Source: a virus (Duplodnaviria > Heunggongvirae > Uroviricota > Caudoviricetes). Taken from it: a stretch of DNA of 10,454 nt. This document shows positions 40-10,454 of this stretch, one piece after another. Both the position numbers and the translations under genes were made by a program. The notes beneath the pieces were generated by a model. It was not told the DNA's origin and did no database searches. It worked only from the letters and a program-made list of their open reading frames with translations. Position 1 is the first letter of the stretch. Every line of letters begins with the position of its first letter. The DNA is taken from IMG/VR virus record IMGVR_UViG_2541047595_000021; one strand, given 5' to 3'.

Positions 40-402
40 GGGGCTGATTCTGGATTCGACGGGATTTGCGAAACCCAAGGTGCATGCCGAGGGGCGGTTG
101 GCCTCGTAAAAAGCCGCAAAAAATAGTCGCAAACGACGAAAACTACGCTTTAGCAGCTTAATAACCTGCTTAGAGCCCTCTCTCCCTAGCCTCCGCTCTT
201 AGGACGGGGATCAAGAGAGGTCAAACCCAAAAGAGATCGCGTGGAAGCCCTGCCTGGGGTTGAAGCGTTAAAACTTAATCAGGCTAGTTTGTTAGTGGCG
301 TGTCCGTCCGCAGCTGGCAAGCGAATGTAAAGACTGACTAAGCATGTAGTACCGAGGATGTAGGAATTTCGGACGCGGGTTCAACTCCCGCCAGCTCCAC
401 CA
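40..402 (+). ncRNA. ssrA: tmRNA (transfer-messenger RNA, SsrA), 363 nt
   Basis: Begins GGGGCTGATTCTGGATTCGACGGG (tRNA-like acceptor 5' half) and ends GGTTCAACTCCCGCCAGCTCCACCA (T-arm plus CCA). Contains the tag-peptide frame at 129..161. Matches the enterobacterial tmRNA as I recall it. Confidence 0.93.
129..161 (+). other. tmRNA tag-peptide reading frame ANDENYALAA plus stop
   Basis: gcaaacgacgaaaactacgctttagcagcttaa translates to A-N-D-E-N-Y-A-L-A-A-stop, the canonical E. coli-type degradation tag. Confidence 0.88.
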
Positions 403-438
403 CTTGCTCTTCCGGATACGTCCGGAGAAATCCTGAAA

Positions 439-470
439 GCCCGCATGGCACAAGCTCTGCGGGCTTTTTT
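439..470 (+). terminator. Rho-independent terminator downstream of ssrA
   Basis: GC-rich stem GCCCGCA...TGCGGGC followed by a run of six T (465..470). Confidence 0.6.
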
Positions 471-514
471 GTGTCTACCGTTGTCCGAGGATATCCAGCT
501 AAATCCAGTGATTA

Positions 515-566
515 TTGGTATACGTTTAGGTATACGGTAGGATGTATACCTAAACGCGTATACCAA
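515..566. repeat. Imperfect inverted repeat (about 21-bp arms, 8-bp spacer) just upstream of int; possible integrase arm sites or int operator
   Basis: Left arm TTGGTATACGTTTAGGTATAC (515..535); right arm 544..566 is its reverse complement with a 2-nt CG insertion. Repeated GTATAC cores. Sits between the ssrA terminator and the int ribosome-binding site. Confidence 0.55.
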
Positions 567-586
567 TTCATGAAGGAGCGGCCACA

Positions 587-1792
587 GTGGCAAGAACGAC
601 ACGCCCCCTGACCAACACAGAAGTTCTGCGCGCTAAAGCGTTAGAAAAGGATCTAACGTTACATGATGGCGATGGCCTTTTTCTGCTCATTAAAACGAAC
701 GGTAAGAAGTTGTGGCGTTTCCGTTATCAACGTCCAGCAACAAAACAGCGGACAATGATGGGGCTTGGTGCTTTCCCCGCCCTTTCACTTGCTGATGCTC
801 GACGGTTAAGAGCGGATTACCTTGCTTTGTTGGCTAATGGTATAGACCCACAAGTTCAAGCTGAATTTATCGAAGAACAACAACAGATAGCTCTAGACAG
901 TATTTTTTCGACTGTTGCGACCAACTGGTTCCAGATAAAAAGCAAAAGTGTTTCCCCTGATTACGCTAAAGATATATGGCGCTCGCTGGAAAAAGACATA
1001 TTCCCAGCCATTGGAGAGATTCCCGTCCAACAAATCAAAGCCCGTACGCTAGTCGAAGCTCTTGAGCCAATCAAAGCTCGTGGGGCTCTTGAAACTGTAC
1101 GTCGACTGATACAGCGGATTAACGAGATAATGATTTACGCTGTAAACACTGGTCTGATTGATGCCAATCCAGCATCGGGGGTTGGGATGGCCTTTGAGAA
1201 GCCCAAAAAGCAAAACATGCCAACATTGCGGCCAGAAGAATTGCCGAAGCTGATGCGTTCTTTAGCTATGTCAAACCTATCTGTTTCGACTCGCTGTCTC
1301 ATTGAATGGCAACTCCTGACACTTGTGCGTCCTTCTGAAGCCTCTGGTGCTCGTTGGGCAGAGCTCGATCTTGATACAAAGCTCTGGACTATTCCGGCAG
1401 AGAGAATGAAAGCCAAACGAGAGCACATTGTTCCTTTATCACCCCAAGCTTTAGATATTTTGGAAGTGATGAAGCCCATCAGTGCTCATCGTGAACATAT
1501 TTTTCCTAGCAGAAATGATCCTAAGCAATCAATGAATAGCCAAACTGCTAATGCAGCTTTAAAACGTATTGGTTTTGGAGGAAAGCTAGTTGCTCATGGC
1601 CTCCGATCTATTGCAAGTACAGCAATGAATGAAGCTGGGTTCAATGCGGATGTTATTGAAGCAGCTTTAGCTCACAGTGATAAAAATGAAGTTCGTAAAG
1701 CCTATAATCGTTCAACCTACCTGGTTCAAAGAAAAGATTTAATGAACTGGTGGGGATTATTTTGTATTAGTTCGAAGAGTGTGAATAAATGA
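587..1792 (+). CDS. int: Tyrosine recombinase, P4-type integrase (N-terminal arm-binding DUF4102-like domain), ssrA-specific
   Basis: GTG start with AAGGAG 9 nt upstream. N-terminus LTNTEVLRAKA...DGDGLFLLIKTNGKKLWRFRYQ is the typical P4-integrase arm-binding motif. C-terminal catalytic motifs HGLRS and AHSD...RKAYNRSTY (H-x-x-R ... Y). Directly adjacent to a tmRNA gene. Confidence 0.9.
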   Translation: MARTTRPLTNTEVLRAKALEKDLTLHDGDGLFLLIKTNGKKLWRFRYQRPATKQRTMMGLGAFPALSLADARRLRADYLALLANGIDPQVQAEFIEEQQQIALDSIFSTVATNWFQIKSKSVSPDYAKDIWRSLEKDIFPAIGEIPVQQIKARTLVEALEPIKARGALETVRRLIQRINEIMIYAVNTGLIDANPASGVGMAFEKPKKQNMPTLRPEELPKLMRSLAMSNLSVSTRCLIEWQLLTLVRPSEASGARWAELDLDTKLWTIPAERMKAKREHIVPLSPQALDILEVMKPISAHREHIFPSRNDPKQSMNSQTANAALKRIGFGGKLVAHGLRSIASTAMNEAGFNADVIEAALAHSDKNEVRKAYNRSTYLVQRKDLMNWWGLFCISSKSVNK

Positions 1793-3426
1793 ATACTTAT
1801 AAGCAAACCATTAAACAAAAATCAAGATTAAACATATGGGAAACAGCTATCGCAAGGTTGACAACCCAAGCTGAGAGCTCAAGAATCTTAGAATCAAACT
1901 ATTTAACAAATCTTATAGATTTTTGTTGGAAAGATACACTAAATCAAGTTGCTATATATGATGAGAGCATTGTATTACGCAATGGTTATAATTGGGTGCA
2001 AAAAATAAGTGATAGTTATAAACCTAAAGCTGCAAGTGAACTAAAGATTGCTTTCTTTTGCGGCCCTGAACCAGAAAATGACTTGGATATACTCTTATCA
2101 TTAGATGTTAGAATAGAAAATGTCTGGGCTTTTGAAATTGATAACAATTCATATAACACTGCCTTACAAAAAGCTAAAGAGTTCTATCCAAAATTAAAAA
2201 TATTCCCTGGTTCTATTGGGGAGTTTTTTAAAACCACACATCATACCTTTGATATTATTTACCTTGATTTTACAAGTTCGTTATTGACTAAAAAGAGCCC
2301 TCCCCTTGGAGTAATAAACTCTGTATTTGACAATCAGGCCCTATCAGACTTAGGGGTGTTAATTGTAAACTCTTGCGAACCCGATGCTAACGAAGATAAC
2401 GCAACATTTCTTGCAAGTTATTTCATGAATCACGAAATAATTGAATCATCTGTAATTAACAAAACTAATGATGATGATTATGATGATAACTATGATTATT
2501 TTTCACTTTTTATTGAATCCCCCACATCACAAGGATACGATGATATAAAGTCATTAGCAAAAGTTATAAAGACTAACATATCCGGAGCGTACTCTGCCTT
2601 TTCAACAAGTTATGTAATGCACTATGCTTCAATGATTAGTCCAACACTTCGTTTTCTACAAAATAACTCATTAAAAAGACAATTATTTAATGATAAAAAA
2701 GCTGAAGTAACTGCAACCTTTGCAGAAATTGGATCAACTGACTTTTTCAAAACATTAATATCAACAGATGGTGAAGCATCGTCCCCCTCCATTTTAGGAA
2801 ACAGATTCCTAGATAATGAAAGCTACCCATTCTGGAATTTCATTGATTCATTAAATGGCTCAGGAACAAGTATTTCATCTTACTTTAAGAGCTTTTTCAC
2901 CACCGCTAAAGAAGGTGTATCCATTTTAAATGCCGTGCAATTTCTGGAATCATTTCACTCAATGCTTACAGGAGCTAGAAAGCTATTATCTCAGCGAATG
3001 CTCAATGCAATACCCCAAATAATAAAAGCAATTCCTGATGCTAGAGGTGGTTTATTCTGTGACATTCCTTTACCCCACCTTTGGTTAGAGGTGGCACTTA
3101 ATCAGTTAGGTGCACCATACCATGTAAACGTGAAAATGCATAATCGATGGAAATATAAAGCAAAAACTCGCACAATGCATACGGACTTATTTGTTTTTGA
3201 TAGATGCAGAGGTTTTTATGACTCAATGCCTATGATAGATCAATACGAAACGATTCTTACTAACATCGAAGAACAAATTTTCGCTAGGTGTTGTATTGAT
3301 ATTATTGGTAAGCAATGTCGTTGGCCAACTCCAAAACTTTATTTTGGTTCGAACCTAATTGGAATAAACGAGTCTGATTGGTCTGAGTTCGCCGAACTTC
3401 GTGAAAGAGAAATTATAAAAGAATAA
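1789..3426 (+). CDS. Hypothetical protein, 545 aa; sole cargo gene in the int-to-cos hotspot; candidate anti-phage defence or abortive-infection protein, function unknown
   Basis: Long uninterrupted ORF whose ATG overlaps the int stop (ATGA). Strongly AT-rich with AT-rich codon usage (AAA, AAT, ATT, TTA), unlike the GC-rich psu/delta/sid/alpha backbone. Residues about 85-165 (KIAFFCGPEPEND...VWAFEID...FDIIYLDF) look like a Rossmann-type nucleotide-binding fold, but this is a weak guess. Acidic D/Y-rich segment NDDDYDDNYDY encoded at 2467..2499. Confidence 0.8.
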   Translation: MNTYKQTIKQKSRLNIWETAIARLTTQAESSRILESNYLTNLIDFCWKDTLNQVAIYDESIVLRNGYNWVQKISDSYKPKAASELKIAFFCGPEPENDLDILLSLDVRIENVWAFEIDNNSYNTALQKAKEFYPKLKIFPGSIGEFFKTTHHTFDIIYLDFTSSLLTKKSPPLGVINSVFDNQALSDLGVLIVNSCEPDANEDNATFLASYFMNHEIIESSVINKTNDDDYDDNYDYFSLFIESPTSQGYDDIKSLAKVIKTNISGAYSAFSTSYVMHYASMISPTLRFLQNNSLKRQLFNDKKAEVTATFAEIGSTDFFKTLISTDGEASSPSILGNRFLDNESYPFWNFIDSLNGSGTSISSYFKSFFTTAKEGVSILNAVQFLESFHSMLTGARKLLSQRMLNAIPQIIKAIPDARGGLFCDIPLPHLWLEVALNQLGAPYHVNVKMHNRWKYKAKTRTMHTDLFVFDRCRGFYDSMPMIDQYETILTNIEEQIFARCCIDIIGKQCRWPTPKLYFGSNLIGINESDWSEFAELREREIIKE

Positions 3427-3441
3427 ATCTCCACGCGCGCA

Positions 3442-3460
3442 GTGCTTTCCCCGCCTCGCC
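3442..3460 (-). other. cos: cos site: 19-nt cohesive-end sequence of P2/P4-type phages
   Basis: Plus strand reads GTGCTTTCCCCGCCTCGCC, the reverse complement of GGCGAGGCGGGGAAAGCAC, which I recall as the shared P2/P4 cohesive end. Position between the hotspot and psu matches the P4 prophage layout. Confidence 0.65.
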
Positions 3461-3563
3461 CGCCCGCTTTGCGGGGCGGTTTTAATGCAGTTGCACTGAC
3501 ACGCTCAGACCGCGCTGGGAATGGCGCGGTTTGCAGAAAATGAGGCAGGGAAACGCATGCAAA

Positions 3564-3594
3564 GCCATGCACCTTATCGATGCATGGCTTTTTT
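3564..3594. terminator. Hairpin terminator between cos and psu (perfect 8-bp stem, T6 on the plus strand, A-tract on the other side; possibly bidirectional)
   Basis: GCCATGCA-ccttatcga-TGCATGGC followed by TTTTTT. Lies just past the 3' end of psu (minus strand) and downstream of the cargo gene (plus strand). Confidence 0.55.
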
Positions 3595-3624
3595 CAGTAA
3601 AAACGGGCGGATTTTCGGGGAATT

Positions 3625-4197
3625 TTACACTGACTGACGTGATGCAAGTTGCGCACTTTTACGCGAAAAAATCATGTTCTGCGCAGGGGTGAATTTTTCA
3701 CGGCTGTCATCCACCGAAGCCACGTCAGGCCTGAATCCGATGGTCGTTAAAATGTCGCTATCCTGTGCGGAATAATTAATTTTTTCACCCTTCGCAAGCC
3801 AGGACAGAAGGGCTTCACGCAGGGCATCTGTGGCACGCTGTATGGCACAGTTTCGGGCAATGGCCGTCAGCTCACTGTAGCCCATCAGCTCCGGTGCCAG
3901 TGCGGCCGCCAGTACTGTGCCGTGCTGCTGCATAAAATCATTCAGCCGGTCGCGGATGCTGATGTGCTGAACGGCTTCATGCGAACGAATATAACGACCG
4001 GCGGCCTGATTCACCTGCCATTTTCTGACTTCGATAATATTGCGTAATTCGTCCAGGCGGCTGACGTTTCTGCCTTCTCCTGACAGAAGCCGCAGATATT
4101 CCTGTTCGGCCGCTGCCAGCTCATTTTTGCGTTGCAGCCATGCTGCTTTGTTATTCTGACAGGTGTCAAAGGCCTGCTGTAAGGCTGTGCTTTCCAT
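3625..4197 (-). CDS. psu: Psu (polarity suppression protein; capsid-decorating, Rho-antagonist), 190 aa
   Basis: 190-aa ORF starting MESTALQQAFDTCQNNKAAW, as I recall P4 Psu. Correct position and orientation at the end of the sid-delta-psu operon. Confidence 0.85.
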   Translation of the reverse strand: MESTALQQAFDTCQNNKAAWLQRKNELAAAEQEYLRLLSGEGRNVSRLDELRNIIEVRKWQVNQAAGRYIRSHEAVQHISIRDRLNDFMQQHGTVLAAALAPELMGYSELTAIARNCAIQRATDALREALLSWLAKGEKINYSAQDSDILTTIGFRPDVASVDDSREKFTPAQNMIFSRKSAQLASRQSV

Positions 4198-4270
4198 CGT
4201 TATCTCTTTCTCATCATGCTGAAGAATAAAAATACGGTGTGCGGCGACGGCCGGGGTTAACCGGCAGCCC

Positions 4271-4771
4271 TCATTCCAGACGCAGCGAATATGATTGTGT
4301 TTTTAACCGTACTGGCGGCAGTTCCTGTTTTTCATGCAGGCGTTCTGCCAGTTCGTCCGGCGTGACCGGGCGGACAATGAAGCGGGTGATGGTCTGAAGC
4401 GTTTTAAACACCAGACCACAGTCCGGATCCGTGCACACATAAAAACGCTCGGTGACTTCCTGAGACAGACGCCGCGATGTTCTTGACAGCGCAAGGCCTT
4501 TACATCTCCGACAACAATATCCGGTAACAAGCATTCTTTTCGGGCGTTTCATACTGCCGGAGGCTGACGTCAGTGAATCGCGGTATCTCTGTTTGCCTGA
4601 AATGTATTCCATTCCTGAATCTTTACTGTCAGAGAAAAAGCTTTCACTCGCTTCAAATGTCTCAGAGCAATAAATATTCCGGCACTGTGCAATCATTATC
4701 TTGGTGCCATCGTCCATGAAATGTGCGCGACGGGTGTGAGCAACATGTCCACACGACGGGCAGTAAATCAT
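4271..4771 (-). CDS. delta: Delta (Ogr/Delta-family zinc-finger late transcription activator, duplicated Ogr-like domains), 166 aa
   Basis: Two C-x2-C...C-x4-C zinc-finger units (CPSCGHVAH...CRNIYC and CCRRCKG...CTDPDC) typical of Ogr/Delta. Length 166 aa as in P4. Start overlaps the sid stop (ATGA). Confidence 0.85.
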   Translation of the reverse strand: MIYCPSCGHVAHTRRAHFMDDGTKIMIAQCRNIYCSETFEASESFFSDSKDSGMEYISGKQRYRDSLTSASGSMKRPKRMLVTGYCCRRCKGLALSRTSRRLSQEVTERFYVCTDPDCGLVFKTLQTITRFIVRPVTPDELAERLHEKQELPPVRLKTQSYSLRLE

Positions 4772-5502
4772 GACAGCAGTCCTCTGGCCTTAAGCTCTGC
4801 TCCCTGCTGGTCTATTTTGTCCTGCCACACCTTGCGCTGTGCCGGTGTGCCTGCCACCTCATAATCCATGTGCGGGAGTGTTGCCGCTGACAGTCCGGTC
4901 AGCCGGAGAACCGGCTCGCCGGTGAGGCTGATTTGCATCTGTTTAATTTTCTGTTCCAGCGATGATTTCACCTGCTGCATGACAGCTTTATCGGGTGCGA
5001 CGTAGCCCTGATGGCCGGTGGTGTTGGCGAGCGGATTTTCCTGTACCAGGATACTCAGATGCATTGCCCGGACAAGCGCCTCACAGGTTTCATTCAGGGC
5101 GTGTTCCAGCTCATGCTCTGCATACAGACTCAGAAGGTGATGATGTGCCTTCCGGTAGGCGGTGGCCGTGCTGTCACACGCCCCTTTCAGGCGTTCACGT
5201 TCGAAATTCAGCACCACGGCCAGATTGTCATATTCCTGTACCAGCTCCCGGCGTGCCACGCGCTCAATGTGGCGCTGTTTCAGCTCGTCGCTCAGGACAC
5301 CACCGGCTGCACGAAAGGCCGTGCGCCAGTCGTCAGCGTCGTTTCCGTTGGCCTGCGTCAGCGCATTTTTTTCCTGCTCTGCCCGTTCAATGGCCGTGAT
5401 GGTCTCATCCATCAGGCGGGCGTTCTCAAGATGAGCGGCTCTGGCCTTTTCCAGTTGTGCCAGTGCGGGTTGCAGATATTCAGGGATGGTGTTGTCAGAC
5501 AT
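4768..5502 (-). CDS. sid: Sid (capsid size determination, external scaffold), 244 aa
   Basis: The track ORF runs to a GTG at 5520, but the ATG at 5502 (MSDNTIPEYLQ...) has a GAGGAG 7 nt upstream and gives 244 aa, matching P4 Sid. Coiled-coil-like, Ala/Glu/Leu-rich composition. Confidence 0.8.
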   Translation of the reverse strand: MSDNTIPEYLQPALAQLEKARAAHLENARLMDETITAIERAEQEKNALTQANGNDADDWRTAFRAAGGVLSDELKQRHIERVARRELVQEYDNLAVVLNFERERLKGACDSTATAYRKAHHHLLSLYAEHELEHALNETCEALVRAMHLSILVQENPLANTTGHQGYVAPDKAVMQQVKSSLEQKIKQMQISLTGEPVLRLTGLSAATLPHMDYEVAGTPAQRKVWQDKIDQQGAELKARGLLS

Positions 5503-5574
5503 TTTCCGGCTCCTCGTCACTTCAGGTTAAGAAAATTGTGACGTACACCGGACAACAACACGACGCATTGCAGA

Positions 5575-5592
5575 TGTGCCAGCCCTGACACA
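5575..5592 (-). promoter_or_regulatory. TGT-N12-ACA activator box (Delta/Ogr/Cox-type) of the candidate late promoter Psid
   Basis: TGTgccagccctgacACA lies about 70-90 nt upstream of the sid ATG. P2/P4 late promoters are activated through a TGT-N12-ACA dyad centred near -55. Confidence 0.5.
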
Positions 5593-5671
5593 GGAGACTC
5601 ATCCTCACACCGGCAAGCCAGGAAAAGGTCGCAGGAAAAACCGGCTTACTGTTTGTTTTTTTATATTTTAC

Positions 5672-5775
5672 TGTTCACCTCTGTTCACCATAAGAAAAAA
5701 GATAAGTAATACAGTAAGTTAAAGGGTGAACAATCGCAGTAATGACTGTTCACCGTCTGTTCACCACTGTTCACC
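5672..5775. repeat. Cluster of six TGTTCACC octamer iterons (five direct, one inverted) in an AT-rich region; candidate alpha-binding cis replication region (crr) or origin
   Basis: TGTTCACC at 5672..5679, 5682..5689, 5747..5754, 5758..5765 and 5768..5775; inverted copy GGTGAACA at 5725..5732. This octamer is the P4 alpha-protein binding iteron in ori and crr, as I recall. Confidence 0.65.
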
Positions 5776-5879
5776 CGTTGATGGGCTTTTTGTGCTGTTT
5801 ATTACTGTTTATTTTTATTAATTCGCCGGGAATGAATAAGAAAAAACGATTTGTATTTCACTATAAAAATTACGAATTG

Positions 5880-5909
5880 CTTTAAGTGGCTTTAAATGAC
5901 TTTAAGTGG
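5880..5909 (+). repeat. Three tandem 10-bp units (CTTTAAGTGG / CTTTAAATGA / CTTTAAGTGG), helically phased; candidate protein-binding sites upstream of PLL
   Basis: Direct tandem repeat read from the sequence, 26 nt upstream of the PLL TGT-N12-ACA box. Confidence 0.5.
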
Positions 5910-5934
5910 AGATGAACAAAAAACACACAAGCAT

Positions 5935-5952
5935 TGTAAGGCTGCCGGAACA
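5935..5952 (+). promoter_or_regulatory. TGT-N12-ACA activator box of the candidate late leftward promoter PLL driving vis
   Basis: TGTaaggctgccggaACA centred about 110 nt upstream of the vis ATG, a position consistent with a -55 activator site plus leader. Confidence 0.5.
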
Positions 5953-6054
5953 AATCCCCCCTGTTGCGTCTGCCAAAAATATTCACAAAATAAAGCGCTA
6001 CCCGAAGCCGGACGGACTTATCCGGTGCTGTATGGACATTAACGAGGTAGCCCG

Positions 6055-6321
6055 ATGCAAGCTGTTTTTTCTTCCCCGTCTCCCGCCCCTGTGACGCCAC
6101 TGATGCCGCTGCCGGACATCACGCAGGAACGTTTTTTACGTCTGCCGGAAGTAATGCACCTGTGCGGCCTGTCACGCTCGACCATCTATGAACTCATCCG
6201 TAAGGGGGAATTTCCGCCGCAGGTGAGTCTTGGCGGTAAAAATGTGGCCTGGCTGCACTCTGAAGTCACCGCATGGATGGCCGGGCGCATTGCCGGACGC
6301 AAACGGGGGTACGACGCATGA
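6055..6321 (+). CDS. vis: Vis/AlpA-family helix-turn-helix regulator and excision factor, 88 aa
   Basis: [47 protein letters not shown] is a typical AlpA/Vis-type HTH. 88 aa as in P4 orf88 (Vis). GAGG ribosome-binding site 7 nt upstream. Confidence 0.8.
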
Positions 6322-6917
6322 TGATGCCCGCTCTGCAAAAACTCCCTTTTTCTGGCTTGCCTTTTTCCGGCATTTGCGGATATAGTTTTCCCGCTGCCGC
6401 AAAATCGGCAGCCGGGCGTGGAAACCCGAGCAATCTAACGGCGACATATGACGCGCCATGCGTCTTTTTTTGTGTCGCAATCAACGCCACAGAGCGCCAG
6501 ATTATGGTGTGGTGTGTGGTCAGTCGAGCAGATGGCACTCCGTGCATCCTGCCCGCGTCCGCTCATTATGCCGCAGAGTCAATGGTAGCTCAGGCGGGGC
6601 AGCCTCCGGGCTGGCCGGTATCCGTTAGAGCCGGTATTTCCACCCCCGTCTGGGCTATCGCCATCGAGCGTGGAAACTCCGGCGATAGCGTAACCTGCTA
6701 TCTAACGGAGGCTGCCATCATGGCTACAACCCTTACCCCTTCACACCCTGAATTTGTCTTTGTGTTTGCGGCTGTCCGTCGCGCAGACCGTCATCCCCGT
6801 ATCTGCATGCTTCGCACCGTCGCCGGTGATGAACGCAGTGCCCGCCGTTCCCTTGTCCGTGACTATGTGCTCTCCCTTGCTGCCCGTCTGCCGGTGGTGG
6901 AGGTGTCCCGTGCGTAA
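6318..6917 (+). CDS. Long ORF (199 aa from the ATG overlapping the vis stop) spanning the immunity region; possibly kil-like with a nested in-frame gene, or largely spurious
   Basis: Open frame across a GC-rich regulatory region. Its ATG overlaps the vis stop (ATGATGATG). P4 is reported, as I recall, to have nested kil/eta genes in this region. No good ribosome-binding site, and long spurious ORFs are common in this GC-rich stretch. Confidence 0.3.
6357..6386 (+). promoter_or_regulatory. Candidate sigma70 promoter (PLE-like): -35 TTGCCT, 18-nt spacer, -10 TATAGT
   Basis: Hexamers at 6357..6362 and 6381..6386, just downstream of vis and upstream of the seqA element. Pattern match only. Confidence 0.35.
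6418..6441 (+). promoter_or_regulatory. seqA-like element (GTGGAAA...TCTAACGG), RNA target complementary to seqB
   Basis: Contains GTGGAAA and TCTAACGG separated by 9 nt. The reverse complement of 6622..6643 contains the same two blocks. Confidence 0.5.
6450..6471 (+). terminator. Short hairpin plus T7 tract; possible intrinsic terminator or attenuator within the immunity region
   Basis: GACGC-gccat-GCGTC followed by TTTTTTT. The stem is only 5 bp, and the position between seqA and seqB is awkward if seqB must be transcribed from the same promoter. Confidence 0.3.
6622..6643 (+). ncRNA. cI: seqB-like core of a putative CI-type immunity RNA (antisense to seqA and seqC; RNA ends undetermined)
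   Basis: CCGTTAGAgccggtaTTTCCAC is the reverse complement of the GTGGAAA...TCTAACGG blocks found at 6418..6441 and 6669..6708. This three-way arrangement matches the P4 CI RNA immunity system as I recall it. Confidence 0.45.
6669..6708 (+). promoter_or_regulatory. seqC-like element; its TCTAACGG block overlaps the Shine-Dalgarno of the ORF starting at 6720
   Basis: GTGGAAA (6672..6678) and TCTAACGG (6701..6708), with the GGAGG ribosome-binding site at 6707..6711. A 9-bp hairpin (6652..6660 with 6681..6689) encloses the GTGGAAA block. Confidence 0.5.
6720..6917 (+). CDS. Small protein, 65 aa (eta-position nested ORF), function unknown
   Basis: ATG at 6720 with a strong GGAGG 8 nt upstream. 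In frame with, and nested in, the longer ORF. Its stop overlaps the GTG start of the next gene. Confidence 0.45.
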
Positions 6918-7197
6918 TAAAAAAGCCCCTCAGACCGTCTCAGCACGTCATGACGCCCGTGAACACCTCAGCATTGAGGCTTACCATAAGCTCAACCGCG
7001 CCAGCGCCGTATCCCAGTTTGTTGGGGGTGATTTGATTCACCGTGAACTCTCCGGCCTGCATCAGCTCTACATTCCGCATATTTTCAGCTACCTGAATGA
7101 AGATATTGATTTTGTGCTGAATGAGCTGAAAGCCAAAGGCCTGTGCCGCGATTTTCTCGCCCAGCAGAAAGACCGGGGAGACAGGACGCATGTTTGA
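6910..7197 (+). CDS. Epsilon-position protein, 95 aa; possible helper-prophage derepression factor (antirepressor)
   Basis: GTG start with GGAGG 6 nt upstream. Sits immediately upstream of orf151 in the P4 order. The track ORF from 6754 is an upstream extension in the same frame without a ribosome-binding site. Assignment is by position and size only. Confidence 0.5.
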
Positions 7198-7645
7198 TTT
7201 TCCCCAGCCCGGTGAGATTTACCGTTCTGCCGGTTTTCCCGATGTGGCCGTGGTCGGCATTCTGGAAGACGGTATTCCGTGGGAAATGCCGTACCGCTGC
7301 CCGGACATTGTCTGGAACCCGTACCGCCGTAAATTCAGTATCCTTGTGCGTATCCTCGCTGACGGGCGCACCACAGACATCCCGCTGGGGCGTTTTCTGC
7401 GGGAATTTACCTGTGACCGTCCTGACCTGTTTAAACGCAGCCCCGTAAACCGGCATGCGGTACTGAAAGAAATGGCCGGAGACCCGGAATTACAGAAATG
7501 GCGGGAGAAATATCTGGATATTTACCCGCAGGACACTGTTCCGGTCAGCCGGGCGGCACCGGTGGCGCGGGAATGGCGGGAAATTCCCCGCACGGAGCCT
7601 GACCCGGAAATCACCCCGGATAACAGTTACCGCAATTATCTGTAA
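7190..7645 (+). CDS. Conserved P4-family protein orf151 (151 aa), function unknown
   Basis: Exactly 151 aa, in the P4 position between the epsilon-position gene and alpha. Start overlaps the upstream stop. Confidence 0.7.
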   Translation: MFDFPQPGEIYRSAGFPDVAVVGILEDGIPWEMPYRCPDIVWNPYRRKFSILVRILADGRTTDIPLGRFLREFTCDRPDLFKRSPVNRHAVLKEMAGDPELQKWREKYLDIYPQDTVPVSRAAPVAREWREIPRTEPDPEITPDNSYRNYL

Positions 7646-7673
7646 TTAAAAAACGACACCCGAAAAATTAAAT

Positions 7674-7699
7674 GTGCGTATTCGCGCAGGGATACGCAC
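7674..7699 (+). other. 8-bp-stem hairpin between orf151 and orf106; possible attenuator or processing site, no T-tract
   Basis: GTGCGTAT-tcgcgcaggg-ATACGCAC read directly from the sequence. Confidence 0.3.
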
Positions 7700-7780
7700 G
7701 TCTTCAGGAGACGCAGATATGCCTTATCAGTTAATGCAACCGGCACGGAATGCAGTCATCTGTCACAGGGAGGAAAACAA

Positions 7781-8101
7781 ATGAAAACACCCTTACCGCC
7801 CGTCTTACGCGCTGCCCTTTACCGTCGCGCTGTCGCCTGTGCCTGGCTGACCGTGTGCGAACGTCAGCACCGCTACCCGCATCTCACCCTTGAGTCACTG
7901 GAAGCGGCCATCGCCGCTGAGCTGGAAGGCTTTTATCTGCGCCAGCACGGTGAGGAAAAAGGGCGTCAGATAGCCTGTGCCCTGCTGGAAGATTTAATGG
8001 AATCCGGCCCCCTGAAGGCCGCGCCGTCGCTGTCCTTTCTCGGGCTGGTTGTGATGGATGAACTCTGTGCCCGTCACATAAAAGCGCCGGTACTGCACTG
8101 A
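7781..8101 (+). CDS. Conserved P4-family protein orf106 (106 aa), function unknown
   Basis: 106-aa ORF immediately upstream of alpha, as in P4. A 21-codon upstream ORF (7719..7784) ends in an ATGA overlap with its start. Confidence 0.65.
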
Positions 8102-8115
8102 AGGAGAACAACACC

Positions 8116-10454
8116 ATGAAAATGAACGTAACCGCCACCGTCAGCCATGCGCTCGGCCACTGGCCGCGTATTCTCCCGGCGCTGGGGATTCAGGTGCTGA
8201 AAAACCGTCATCAGCCCTGTCCGGTCTGTGGCGGGAGTGACCGCTTCCGTTTTGATGACAGGGAGGGGCGCGGCACCTGGTACTGCAATCAGTGTGGTGC
8301 CGGTGACGGCCTGAAACTGGTTGAAAAGGTGTTTGGTGTCTCCCCGTCCGACGCGGCCGCAAAGGTGGCTGCCGTGACCGGCAGCCTGCCCCCGGCTGAC
8401 CCGGCAGTGACGGCTGCCGCCGGTGCTGAAACAGACGCTGCCCGGAAGAACGCCGCCGCACTGGCACAAACCCTGATGGCGAAAACCCGTCCCGGAACCG
8501 GTAACGCCTACCTGACCCGCAAGGGCTTTCCCGGCCGGGAATGCCGGATGCTGACCGGCACACACAGAGCCGGTGGCGTGAGCTGGCGTGCCGGTGACCT
8601 TGTGGTGCCACTGTATGACGACAGCGGCGAACTGGTTAACCTTCAGTTAATCAGTGCTGACGGCCGTAAGCGCACCCTGAAAGGCGGACAGGTCAGGGGC
8701 ACCTGTCACACCCTTGAAGGACAGAATCAGGCCGGAAAACGTCTGTGGATAGCGGAGGGATACGCGACCGCACTTACCGTGCATCACCTGACCGGTGAAA
8801 CGGTGATGGTGGCGCTTTCTTCCGTGAACCTCCTTTCTCTGGCCAGCCTTGCCCGGCAGAAGCATCCGGCCTGTCAGATTGTCCTTGCCGCAGACCGTGA
8901 CCTCAGCGGTGACGGCCAGAAAAAAGCCGCCGCAGCCGCAGATGCGTGTGAAGGTGTTGTTGCCCTGCCGCCGGTCTTCGGTGACTGGAATGATGCCTTC
9001 ACGCAGTACGGCGGGGAGGCCACCCGTAAGGCCATTTACGATGCCATCCGGCCACCGGCTGAAAGCCCGTTCGACACCATGAGTGAAGCGGAGTTTTCCG
9101 CCATGAGTACCAGCGAAAAGGCCATGCGTATCTATGAGCATTACGGCGAGGCGCTCGCGGTCGATGCCAACGGCCAGCTTCTGTCCCGCTATGAAAATGG
9201 TGTCTGGAAGGTGCTGCCGCCACAGGACTTTGCCCGGAATGTGGCCGGGCTGTTTCAGCGGCTGCGCGCGCCGTTCTCCTCCGGGAAGGTGGCCTCCGTG
9301 GTGGACACCCTGAAGCTGATTATTCCGCAGCAGGAAGCCCCCTCCCGCTGCCTGATTGGCTTTCGTAACGGCGTGCTCGACACGCAGAACGGCACGTTCC
9401 ACCCGCACAGTCCGTCACACTGGATGCGTACCCTGTGCGATGTGGATTTCACCCCGCCGGTGGAAGGGGAAACGCTGGAAACCCACGCCCACGCGTTCTG
9501 GCGCTGGCTTGACCGTGCCGCCGGTGGCCGTGCGGAAAAACGCGACGTGATTCTGGCCGCACTGTTTATGGTGCTGGCAAACCGCTATGACTGGCAGCTC
9601 TTTCTGGAGGTGACCGGTCCCGGCGGCAGCGGCAAAAGTATCATGGCCGAAATAGCCACCCTGCTGGCCGGGGAGGATAACGCCACGTCGGCCACCATTG
9701 AGACGCTGGAATCCCCGCGTGAACGTGCCGCGTTAACTGGCTTCTCACTGATACGCCTGCCGGACCAGGAAAAATGGAGCGGCGACGGAGCCGGACTCAA
9801 GGCCATCACCGGCGGCGATGCAGTGTCCGTTGACCCGAAATACCGGGATGCGTACTCCACGCATATCCCGGCGGTGATTCTGGCCGTGAACAATAAAATA
9901 ACCCGATGCGCTTCACCGACCGCAGCGGCGGCGTGTCACGCCGGCGGGTGATTATTCACTTCCCGGAACAGATAGCCCCGCAGGAGCGCGACCCGCAGCT
10001 TAAGGACAAAATCACCCGCGAGCTGGCGGTCATCGTGCGTCACCTGATGCAGAAGTTCAGCGACCCGATGCTCGCCCGGTCACTGCTTCAGTCCCAGCAG
10101 AACTCAGACGAGGCACTGAACATCAAACGGGATGCCGACCCGACGTTTGATTTTATCGGCTATCTGGAAACCCTGCCGCAGACCAGCGGCATGTATATGG
10201 GGAACGCCAGTATCATCCCGCGTAATTACCGTAAATACCTCTATCACGCCTATCTGGCCTACATGGAGGCAAACGGCTACCGGAATGTACTCAGTCTGAA
10301 AATGTTCGGGCTGGGGCTGCCGGTGATGCTGAAGGAATACGGACTGAATTACGAGAAGCGCCATACCAAACAGGGGATACAGACCAACCTGACACTGAAA
10401 GAGGAAAGCTACGGCGACTGGCTGCCAAAATGTGACGCCCGTGCAACAACCTGA
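8116..10454 (+). pseudogene. alpha: Alpha primase-helicase (zinc-ribbon primase, TOPRIM, SF3/D5-type helicase, C-terminal DNA-binding domain), interrupted by a +5 frameshift near 9892..9901
   Basis: AAGGAG ribosome-binding site 9 nt before the ATG. Zinc-ribbon CPVCGG...CNQC, TOPRIM acidic motifs (IAEGY, LAADRD), Walker A VTGPGGSGKS. Reading frame 1 stops at 9951 and frame 0 continues from 9906 to the stop at 10452..10454. Combined length is about 777 aa, as for P4 alpha. The breakpoint coincides with a tandem AATAA-AATAA. Confidence 0.75.

Follow-up and report, generated by a model that had tools for sequence, protein, structure and literature searches.

A P4 satellite with a CP4-57-type integrase module at ssrA of Escherichia coli and its predicted methyltransferase-fold cargo gene

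The viral record IMGVR_UViG_2541047595_000021 (Caudoviricetes), a stretch of 10,454 nucleotides analyzed here at its full length and referred to as the window, very probably represents the left 95% of a P4 satellite integrated in an Escherichia coli chromosome. The whole window matched E. coli chromosomes with identities of up to 99.9%, and its position in these chromosomes is between smpB-ssrA and ypjA. On the 3′ side of ssrA, the gene for transfer-messenger RNA (tmRNA), the gene order was integrase, an open reading frame (ORF) of 545 amino acids, cos, psu, delta, sid, vis, the CI-RNA region, epsilon, orf151, orf106, and alpha. The left junction alone is inside the window, the end of which coincides with the stop codon of alpha. 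This arrangement is correct but ordinary: a satellite core, an exchanged integrase, and the ssrA site have each already been published. The only lead worth following is the 545-amino-acid gene, which occupies the cargo slot of the satellite.

The region from position 3461 to 10454 aligned with positions 4636–11624 of phage P4 (NC_001609 / X51522) as a single megablast piece with 98.2% nucleotide identity, and the prophage gene order was the same in both. The 19-nt cohesive end at 3442–3460 (GTGCTTTCCCCGCCTCGCC) was the exact reverse complement of the left end of P4; with this identical cohesive end and its matches to P2-family cos regions, the window carries a cos site of the P4 and P2 type. 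Psu, Delta, Sid, Vis, Epsilon, and the pieces of alpha were 97–100% identical to the P4 proteins on alignment, and the start codon of Sid, the ATG at 5502, was the same as in P4. Vis shared 36% identity with AlpA of strain K-12. For orf151 and orf106, the likeness to P4 rests on length, order, family match, and the nucleotide block, rather than on a separate protein alignment. Every component of the core set of de Sousa and Rocha (int, psu, delta, sid, alpA, epsilon/ash, and alpha) was found, in the canonical order, and relatives of the window had the same crr as P4. Judged from these alignments, the element is P4 itself, and not a mere P4-like relative, outside the segment from attL to cos.

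The integrase shared 62% amino acid identity with IntA of the K-12 element CP4-57, versus 37% with P4 Int, and it passed the IntA-type NCBIfam model NF007246 with 588 bits (cutoff, 434), which places it by sequence in the CP4-57 IntA family. On the left, the homology to P4 ended approximately 10 nt beyond the 19-nt cohesive end. The right boundary was located in the near-identical complete genome MMC-J-0105 (locus L001), in which alpha is followed by the alpha terminator and then by two 120-bp crr repeats, all still P4-like; the homology ended abruptly at the close of the second repeat. Since the homology to P4 stops at crr and near cos, the foreign block of the circularized element starts where crr ends, spans attP and int, and reaches as far as cos. 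Within this block, the attP core and the arm repeats are unrelated to those of P4, the integration site is ssrA rather than the leucine tRNA gene leuX, and the gop-beta-cII cargo of P4 has been swapped for the one 545-amino-acid gene.

A preliminary description of this DNA had proposed a P4-type core combined with an ssrA-specific integrase module, with psu-delta-sid, vis, orf151, orf106, and alpha in P4 order and size and with core proteins alignable to the P4 family. The alignments agree with this proposal and set its boundaries at cos on the left and crr on the right, and the genes from psu to orf106 stand in P4 order within the one block. Alpha also keeps its P4 position, but not its size, as it is split into ORFs of 611 and 182 amino acids. 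The integrase, which had been said to abut ssrA directly, is indeed the next gene, but 184 bp separate the two. The integrase gene is, as described, more AT-rich than the core (44.5% versus 56% G+C), but the deepest trough in G+C content (33.9%) is the 545-amino-acid gene, which had gone unmentioned. The coordinates of all features are collected in Table 1.

Table 1. Features of the window, with positions counted from its first nucleotide
Feature	Position	Strand	Evidence
ssrA (tmRNA), intact, tag peptide ANDENYALAA	40..402	+	ARAGORN; Rfam RF00023, 295.8 bits, full length
attL core, last 15 nt of ssrA (CCGCCAGCTCCACCA)	388..402	+	Alignment of attL, attR variants, and empty attB
Element-derived P′ arm, 184 bp between ssrA and int	403..586	+	Sequence; terminator scan; motif search
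Tyrosine integrase, IntA (CP4-57) type, 401 aa, 44.5% GC	587..1792	+	Arm-DNA-bind_3, Phage_int_M, and Phage_integrase domains (Pfam)
Hotspot cargo gene, 545 aa, 33.9% GC	1789..3426	+	Start overlaps int stop codon (ATGA, 1789-1792)
cos region	3431..3502		Comparison with P4 left end; matches to P2-family cos regions
psu (polarity suppression and capsid decoration protein)	3625..4197	-	Pfam Psu, E 4e-88; 99% identity to P4 Psu
delta (Ogr/Delta transactivator of helper late genes)	4271..4771	-	Pfam Ogr_Delta; 97% identity to P4 Delta
sid (external scaffold setting small capsid size), 244 aa	4768..5502	-	98% identity to P4 Sid
P4 ori region	5276..5999		Coordinate transfer from P4 annotation (P4 9086-9809) via the collinear 98.2% alignment
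vis (ORF88; AlpA-family excisionase and regulator)	6055..6321	+	Pfam Phage_AlpA; 99% identity to P4 Vis
P4 immunity region	6380..6665	+	Rfam matches above gathering scores
c4-a1b1, target/leader element upstream of CI RNA	6380-6432	+	Rfam, 51.9 bits
isrK, leader element upstream of CI RNA	6393-6470	+	Rfam, 75.4 bits
CI RNA (Rfam C4 family)	6578-6665	+	76.2 bits
epsilon (helper derepression protein)	6910..7197	+	99% identity to P4 Epsilon
orf151, 151 aa (P4 length)	7190..7645	+	PHROG 10748, E 7e-102; inside the 98.2% P4 block
orf106 (DUF5375), 106 aa (P4 length)	7781..8101	+	Pfam DUF5375, E 3e-63; inside the 98.2% P4 block
alpha (primase-helicase), interrupted	8116..10454	+	Pieces of 611 aa (98% identity to P4) and 182 aa (100%)

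The integration event was delimited by comparison with unoccupied sites. In strain WEM25, the empty attB has its junction between ...CCCGCCAGCTCCACCA and ATCATGATTGGACGG..., followed by ypjA, so that ssrA is directly joined to the ypjA-side flank; an empty ssrA site is present in many genomes. In the window, int lies just downstream of an intact ssrA, and attL is within the 3′ end of this gene. In occupied genomes, the ypjA-side flank restarts 485–500 bp past the alpha stop codon, preceded by TTCAAACTCCGCCAGC..., and the attR that had been predicted as a repeat of the ssrA 3′ end within 1–3 kb downstream is therefore present in relatives at this distance past the end of the window. A direct-repeat search for attR in the closest genome missed the site, which has 1-nt and 5-nt indels there, and the empty-site comparison located it.

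The attR was polymorphic across genomes (loci L001, L004, L005, L006, and L007), with forms including a perfect 15-nt repeat of the ssrA 3′ end in AREA_486 (CCGCCAGCTCCACCA), a T-to-C variant in E27 (GCCAGCCCACCA), whose element is 99.9% identical to the window, and a variant with 5 nt missing in MMC-J-0105 (GCCAGCCA, L001 18934–18952). The T-to-C change of the E27 type concerns the base that takes part in the acceptor-stem G-U pair. CP4-57 of K-12 has an imperfect attR of the same kind (TTCAGACTCCGCCAGCCCACCA, L004 22567–22590), which is annotated as the ssrA remnant psaA. In SW07099 (L007, 290–502), different DNA with a second integrase gene begins right after the attR core of the satellite, which indicates a tandem array at ssrA.

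Judging from the aligned sites, the crossover could fall anywhere within the 15-nt block, and its position bears on the fate of tmRNA. If it falls in CCGCCAGC, the last 7 nt of tmRNA come from the element, and excision with a defective attR would give a defective ssrA; if it falls in CCACCA, excision would restore ssrA. In many genomes, excision would, depending on this position, result in a defective tmRNA. Kirby et al. reportedly found in 1994 that excision of CP4-57 gives a defective ssrA. Excision that alters tmRNA has also been reported for CP4So, an element of Shewanella oneidensis with similarly imperfect att repeats (PMC5148205). A weaker reading is that the satellite supplies the functional ssrA 3′ end while many attR sites are defective, so that excision upon helper infection would switch off tmRNA.

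The arm between ssrA and int is element-derived, and a terminator scan found in it, at approximately 437–473, a stem-loop with a T-run after it, which would serve ssrA as a replacement rho-independent terminator. This hairpin resembles the one that CP4-57 has at the same place in K-12 (L004 600–640); elements at ssrA thus bring both a new terminator and a new 3′ flank to the tmRNA gene. Shortly before int begins, at 515–566, the arm carries four T[TA]GGTATAC[GA] repeats, a tandem pair followed by an inverted pair, and another tandem pair occurs on the opposite arm beside attR. All six exact copies of this motif in the 26-kb locus L001 were within the two att arms; with one mismatch allowed, the overall count was not above chance (7 found versus 5.3 expected). 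The repeat search in L001 also found a 23-nt direct repeat that joins the ssrA-side arm to the attR arm. We rejected this repeat as the att core, as it lies 112 bp from ssrA, belongs to the palindromic set upstream of int, and is absent from attB. The 23-nt repeat and the T[TA]GGTATAC[GA] copies are better described as putative arm-type integrase-binding sites. On both sides of the core, the repeat pairs are spaced 12 nt apart and mirror the annotated layout of the P4 attP arms, with unrelated sequence.

We propose that the P4 segment between the end of crr and cos, which includes attP and int, was replaced by an integrase/att module of the CP4-57 IntA family together with a different cargo. 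The IntA-type integrase would recombine the attP core, ...AAACTCCGCCAGC[T/C]CCACCA, with ~15 nt at the 3′ end of ssrA. The element would then provide the sequence past the crossover and the new terminator, by which tmRNA stays functional, and the displaced or duplicated ssrA 3′ end would form attR beside ypjA. Past position 10454, we would expect the two 120-bp crr repeats, ATTGGTATACGATTAGGTATACG, ...AAACTCCGCCAGC(T/C)CCACCA, ATCATGATTGG, and ypjA, in this order. When a P2-type helper infects the cell, the core would be expected to behave like that of P4: Epsilon would derepress the helper, Delta would activate the late genes, Sid and Psu would build small capsids, and the P2 terminase would cut at cos. 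In this scheme, the crossover position, the action of Vis with a foreign integrase, and the dependence on a helper are inferred.

Alpha, in which the domains Zn_Ribbon_Prim, Toprim_3, D5_N, and Pox_D5 were recognized, is intact (777 amino acids) in near-identical genomes. In the window, a tandem duplication of 5 bp (AATAA) at 9892–9896, relative to the closest genomes, splits the gene. The frame breaks after P4 residue 594, just beyond helicase motif C, and the 611-amino-acid product lacks the remainder of the helicase and the C-terminal part, to which we take the origin-binding function to belong. Of 1078 complete E. coli genomes with this segment of alpha, none showed the duplication; a recent inactivating mutation and an error in the sequence are its two possible origins. 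Taking an intact alpha as the mark of replication competence, the window copy lacks it; because the primase-helicase is frameshifted, this copy probably cannot replicate, provided that the 5-bp insertion does not stem from a sequencing error.

The frequency of the arrangement was surveyed in 5426 complete E. coli genomes, all of which matched ssrA. An ssrA-int junction with an integrase of the same family as that of the window was found in 429 of these, and 290 carried at least 80% of the window. Among the matches listed, H6–H25 (83–84% covered, ~16% missing) had other genes in the slot at 1789–3426; the genes found there in matching elements include those for SIR2, NACHT, and SEC-C proteins and P-loop ATPases. 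A P4-like satellite of Rahnella, whose integrase is 74% identical, is also located at ssrA. These observations fit published precedents. The psu-int interval beside cos is a hotspot in which the cargo varies and is often antiviral (PMC9122126), the integrases of P4-like satellites are often exchanged (PMC8628076), and ssrA is targeted by P4-like integrases such as those of CP4-57 and CP4So (PMC5148205, citing Williams 2003). The novelty of ssrA integration that was implied in the preliminary description therefore does not hold; the configuration is common and of an already known kind.

The closest known systems differ in how much of the element they share. CP4-57 of K-12 (intA, alpA) occupies the same ssrA-ypjA site with an integrase of the same family. 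Unlike the window element, however, it is ~22 kb long and lacks psu, delta, sid, cos, and P4 alpha; its “P4-like” character is limited to the integrase and AlpA, and it is no capsid-hijacking satellite. CP4So is likewise an element with a P4-family integrase at the ssrA 3′ end, but it is a 30-gene cryptic prophage of mosaic structure that lacks the P4 hijack module, and its excision, regulated by AlpA and H-NS, has been demonstrated experimentally (PMC5148205). The P4-like hotspot satellites (PMC9122126, PMC8628076, PMC13586616) have the same seven core components in canonical order, cargo that varies in the slot between int and cos/psu, and an integrase exchanged relative to the core. We found no structural difference between these satellites and the window element, whose cargo is among their unannotated “hypothetical” systems.

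Several points weigh against the proposed explanation. The right junction is outside the window, and attR is known from related genomes alone; in the closest complete genome, it carries the 5-nt deletion. Because of this deletion together with the alpha frameshift, some copies are suggested to be immobilized. Furthermore, Vis has 99% identity to its P4 counterpart, but the integrase (37%) and the arms are foreign; Vis possibly acts on the new arms, or excision possibly relies on Int and host factors alone. Helper dependence, packaging, and excision are all predicted from the sequence.

These points bear on the possibility that the element is a decaying cryptic remnant like CP4-57 rather than a satellite, in which the P4 genes are relics that became fixed at ssrA and pass on by vertical descent or by homologous recombination in the flanking DNA. 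The frameshift in alpha and the attR deletion in the closest complete genome fit such a remnant, as does the deletion-variant attR span found in approximately five of eight evenly sampled full-length attR rows. However, all the other core genes are intact and 97–100% identical to P4, cos and the CI RNA are intact, and crr is intact in relatives. The alpha frameshift is private to the window among the 1078 genomes, AREA_486 retains the perfect 15-nt attL/attR repeat, and the turnover of cargo among otherwise identical elements points to an active lineage. We therefore regard a cryptic remnant as unlikely, though not negligibly so. Because the combination of a P4 core with the foreign integrase is widely distributed and has perfect att repeats in some genomes, we argue that it is, or was, mobile.

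The gene in the cargo slot was examined further. Satellites that otherwise match carry different genes in this slot, which is flanked by int and by the cos/psu side. In the complete E. coli genomes, the 545-amino-acid gene occurred five times, every time in this P4 satellite. Its product is identical to WP_021572920, which is listed as a single “hypothetical” hotspot system in Table S1A of Rousset et al. 2022 (PMC9122126), and we found no record of this protein having been tested. The protein had no Pfam or NCBIfam match at E ≤ 0.1 and none in PADLOC or PHROGs, and a sequence profile search of the Protein Data Bank gave nothing usable. Curated methyltransferase families matched only sporadically and weakly, in some members of the cargo family and not in the cargo protein itself. 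Four of 45 homologs weakly matched mad2 of MADS (~23 bits, in the methyltransferase core); membership of the family in mad2 was rejected on this weak and partial match, which is at most a hint of distant relatedness to methyltransferases.

Structure prediction was more informative. An alignment-based AlphaFold2 model of the protein was confident (predicted local distance difference test score, 90.8), and Foldseek matched it to methyltransferases. According to this model, the protein has a class-I S-adenosylmethionine-dependent methyltransferase fold and a C-terminal domain of ~300 amino acids; these C-terminal residues include many that are invariant and gave no structural match. The residues invariant in the 45 homologs include G92-P93-E94-P95, E116, and D160, which may correspond to methyltransferase motifs I, II, and IV. 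The family consists of single proteins of ~540 amino acids, all but one of which are annotated as hypothetical, and its hosts are Enterobacterales, Vibrio, Aeromonas, Pasteurellaceae, and Burkholderiales, in addition to records labeled Myxococcia, Paenibacillus, and Methanosarcina.

The genomic contexts of the family were diverse. In a P4-like satellite of Klebsiella aerogenes, the gene occupies the same slot, and the ATGA overlap between the int stop and the cargo start is kept (L013 7001–7004). Because the integrase and the cargo protein of this satellite are 92% and 84% identical to those of the window, with Psu just 60% identical, the comparison suggests that int and cargo moved as one block between satellite lineages. 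In the Rahnella satellite at ssrA, the gene is again in the same slot, adjacent to int. In an E. coli P2-like prophage, it lies between a tail-fiber assembly gene and the sheath gene, which is presumably the position of P2 Z/fun. In Vibrio parahaemolyticus, it lies in an array of short same-strand genes that looks integron-like and may be the chromosomal superintegron. In Aeromonas, it belongs to the accessory cluster of a lambdoid prophage, beside HNH and KAP-NTPase genes, and in Salmonella it belongs to an island with an integrase and a relaxase; two further contexts were uninformative. No partner gene was conserved across the contexts viewed.

The close association with int raises the question of whether the AT-rich gene is a part of the integrase module that serves integration, rather than an independent accessory gene. 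Its start overlaps the int stop codon, the pair is kept in the K. aerogenes satellite at far higher identity than Psu, and the two genes are also adjacent in Rahnella. However, the same integrase is paired in this slot with SIR2, NACHT, SEC-C, or ATPase genes, and the family occurs without an integrase neighbor in the P2 tail-gene slot, the integron-like array, and the lambdoid prophage, and alone on chromosomes; a role in integration is thus very improbable. Still more doubtful is the idea that the window contains two neighboring elements, an ssrA island remnant (int and the AT-rich gene) beside an integrase-less P4, rather than a chimera: tandem arrays are known at ssrA, SW07099 has a second integrase after the satellite attR, and the G+C content changes stepwise along the region (44%, 34%, and 56%), but the stretch between int and cos has no second att site, the P4 homology starts exactly at the cohesive end and stops exactly at crr, the int-side arm repeats recur right after crr, the attL-attR distance (~10.55 kb) is near the 11.6 kb of P4, and the int-plus-core unit is found in 290 genomes with differing cargos.

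A 14-nt piece of the cos cohesive end (GTGCTTTCCCCGCC, 3442–3455) recurs inside int at 768–781; with ~0.2 matches expected in 10 kb by our own estimate, this is probably chance. In the P4 immunity leader, the Rfam family isrK, an Hfq-binding small RNA described in Salmonella, overlaps the c4-a1b1 target at 6393–6470.

The integration site as such matters little, ssrA having long been established as a target for integrases of the P4 family. The element is a clean, well-delimited example of a conserved satellite core with a swapped integrase/att module and cargo, and its illustrative value is that the exchange boundaries fall exactly at cos and crr. As for the cargo, our best guess, drawn from the predicted fold and the genomic contexts together, is that it is an accessory gene that takes part in phage conflict through methylation of nucleic acids. 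Tentatively, and with slightly more doubt than confidence, we propose that it might be the first example of an undescribed single-gene system of phage-host or phage-phage conflict, either as a defense effector or as an orphan modification enzyme that would shield the satellite and its helper against restriction. The family is widespread and occurs repeatedly in the variable accessory slots of several kinds of mobile elements. If the cargo protein is a defense or counter-defense factor, it would add a new methyltransferase-based single-gene system.

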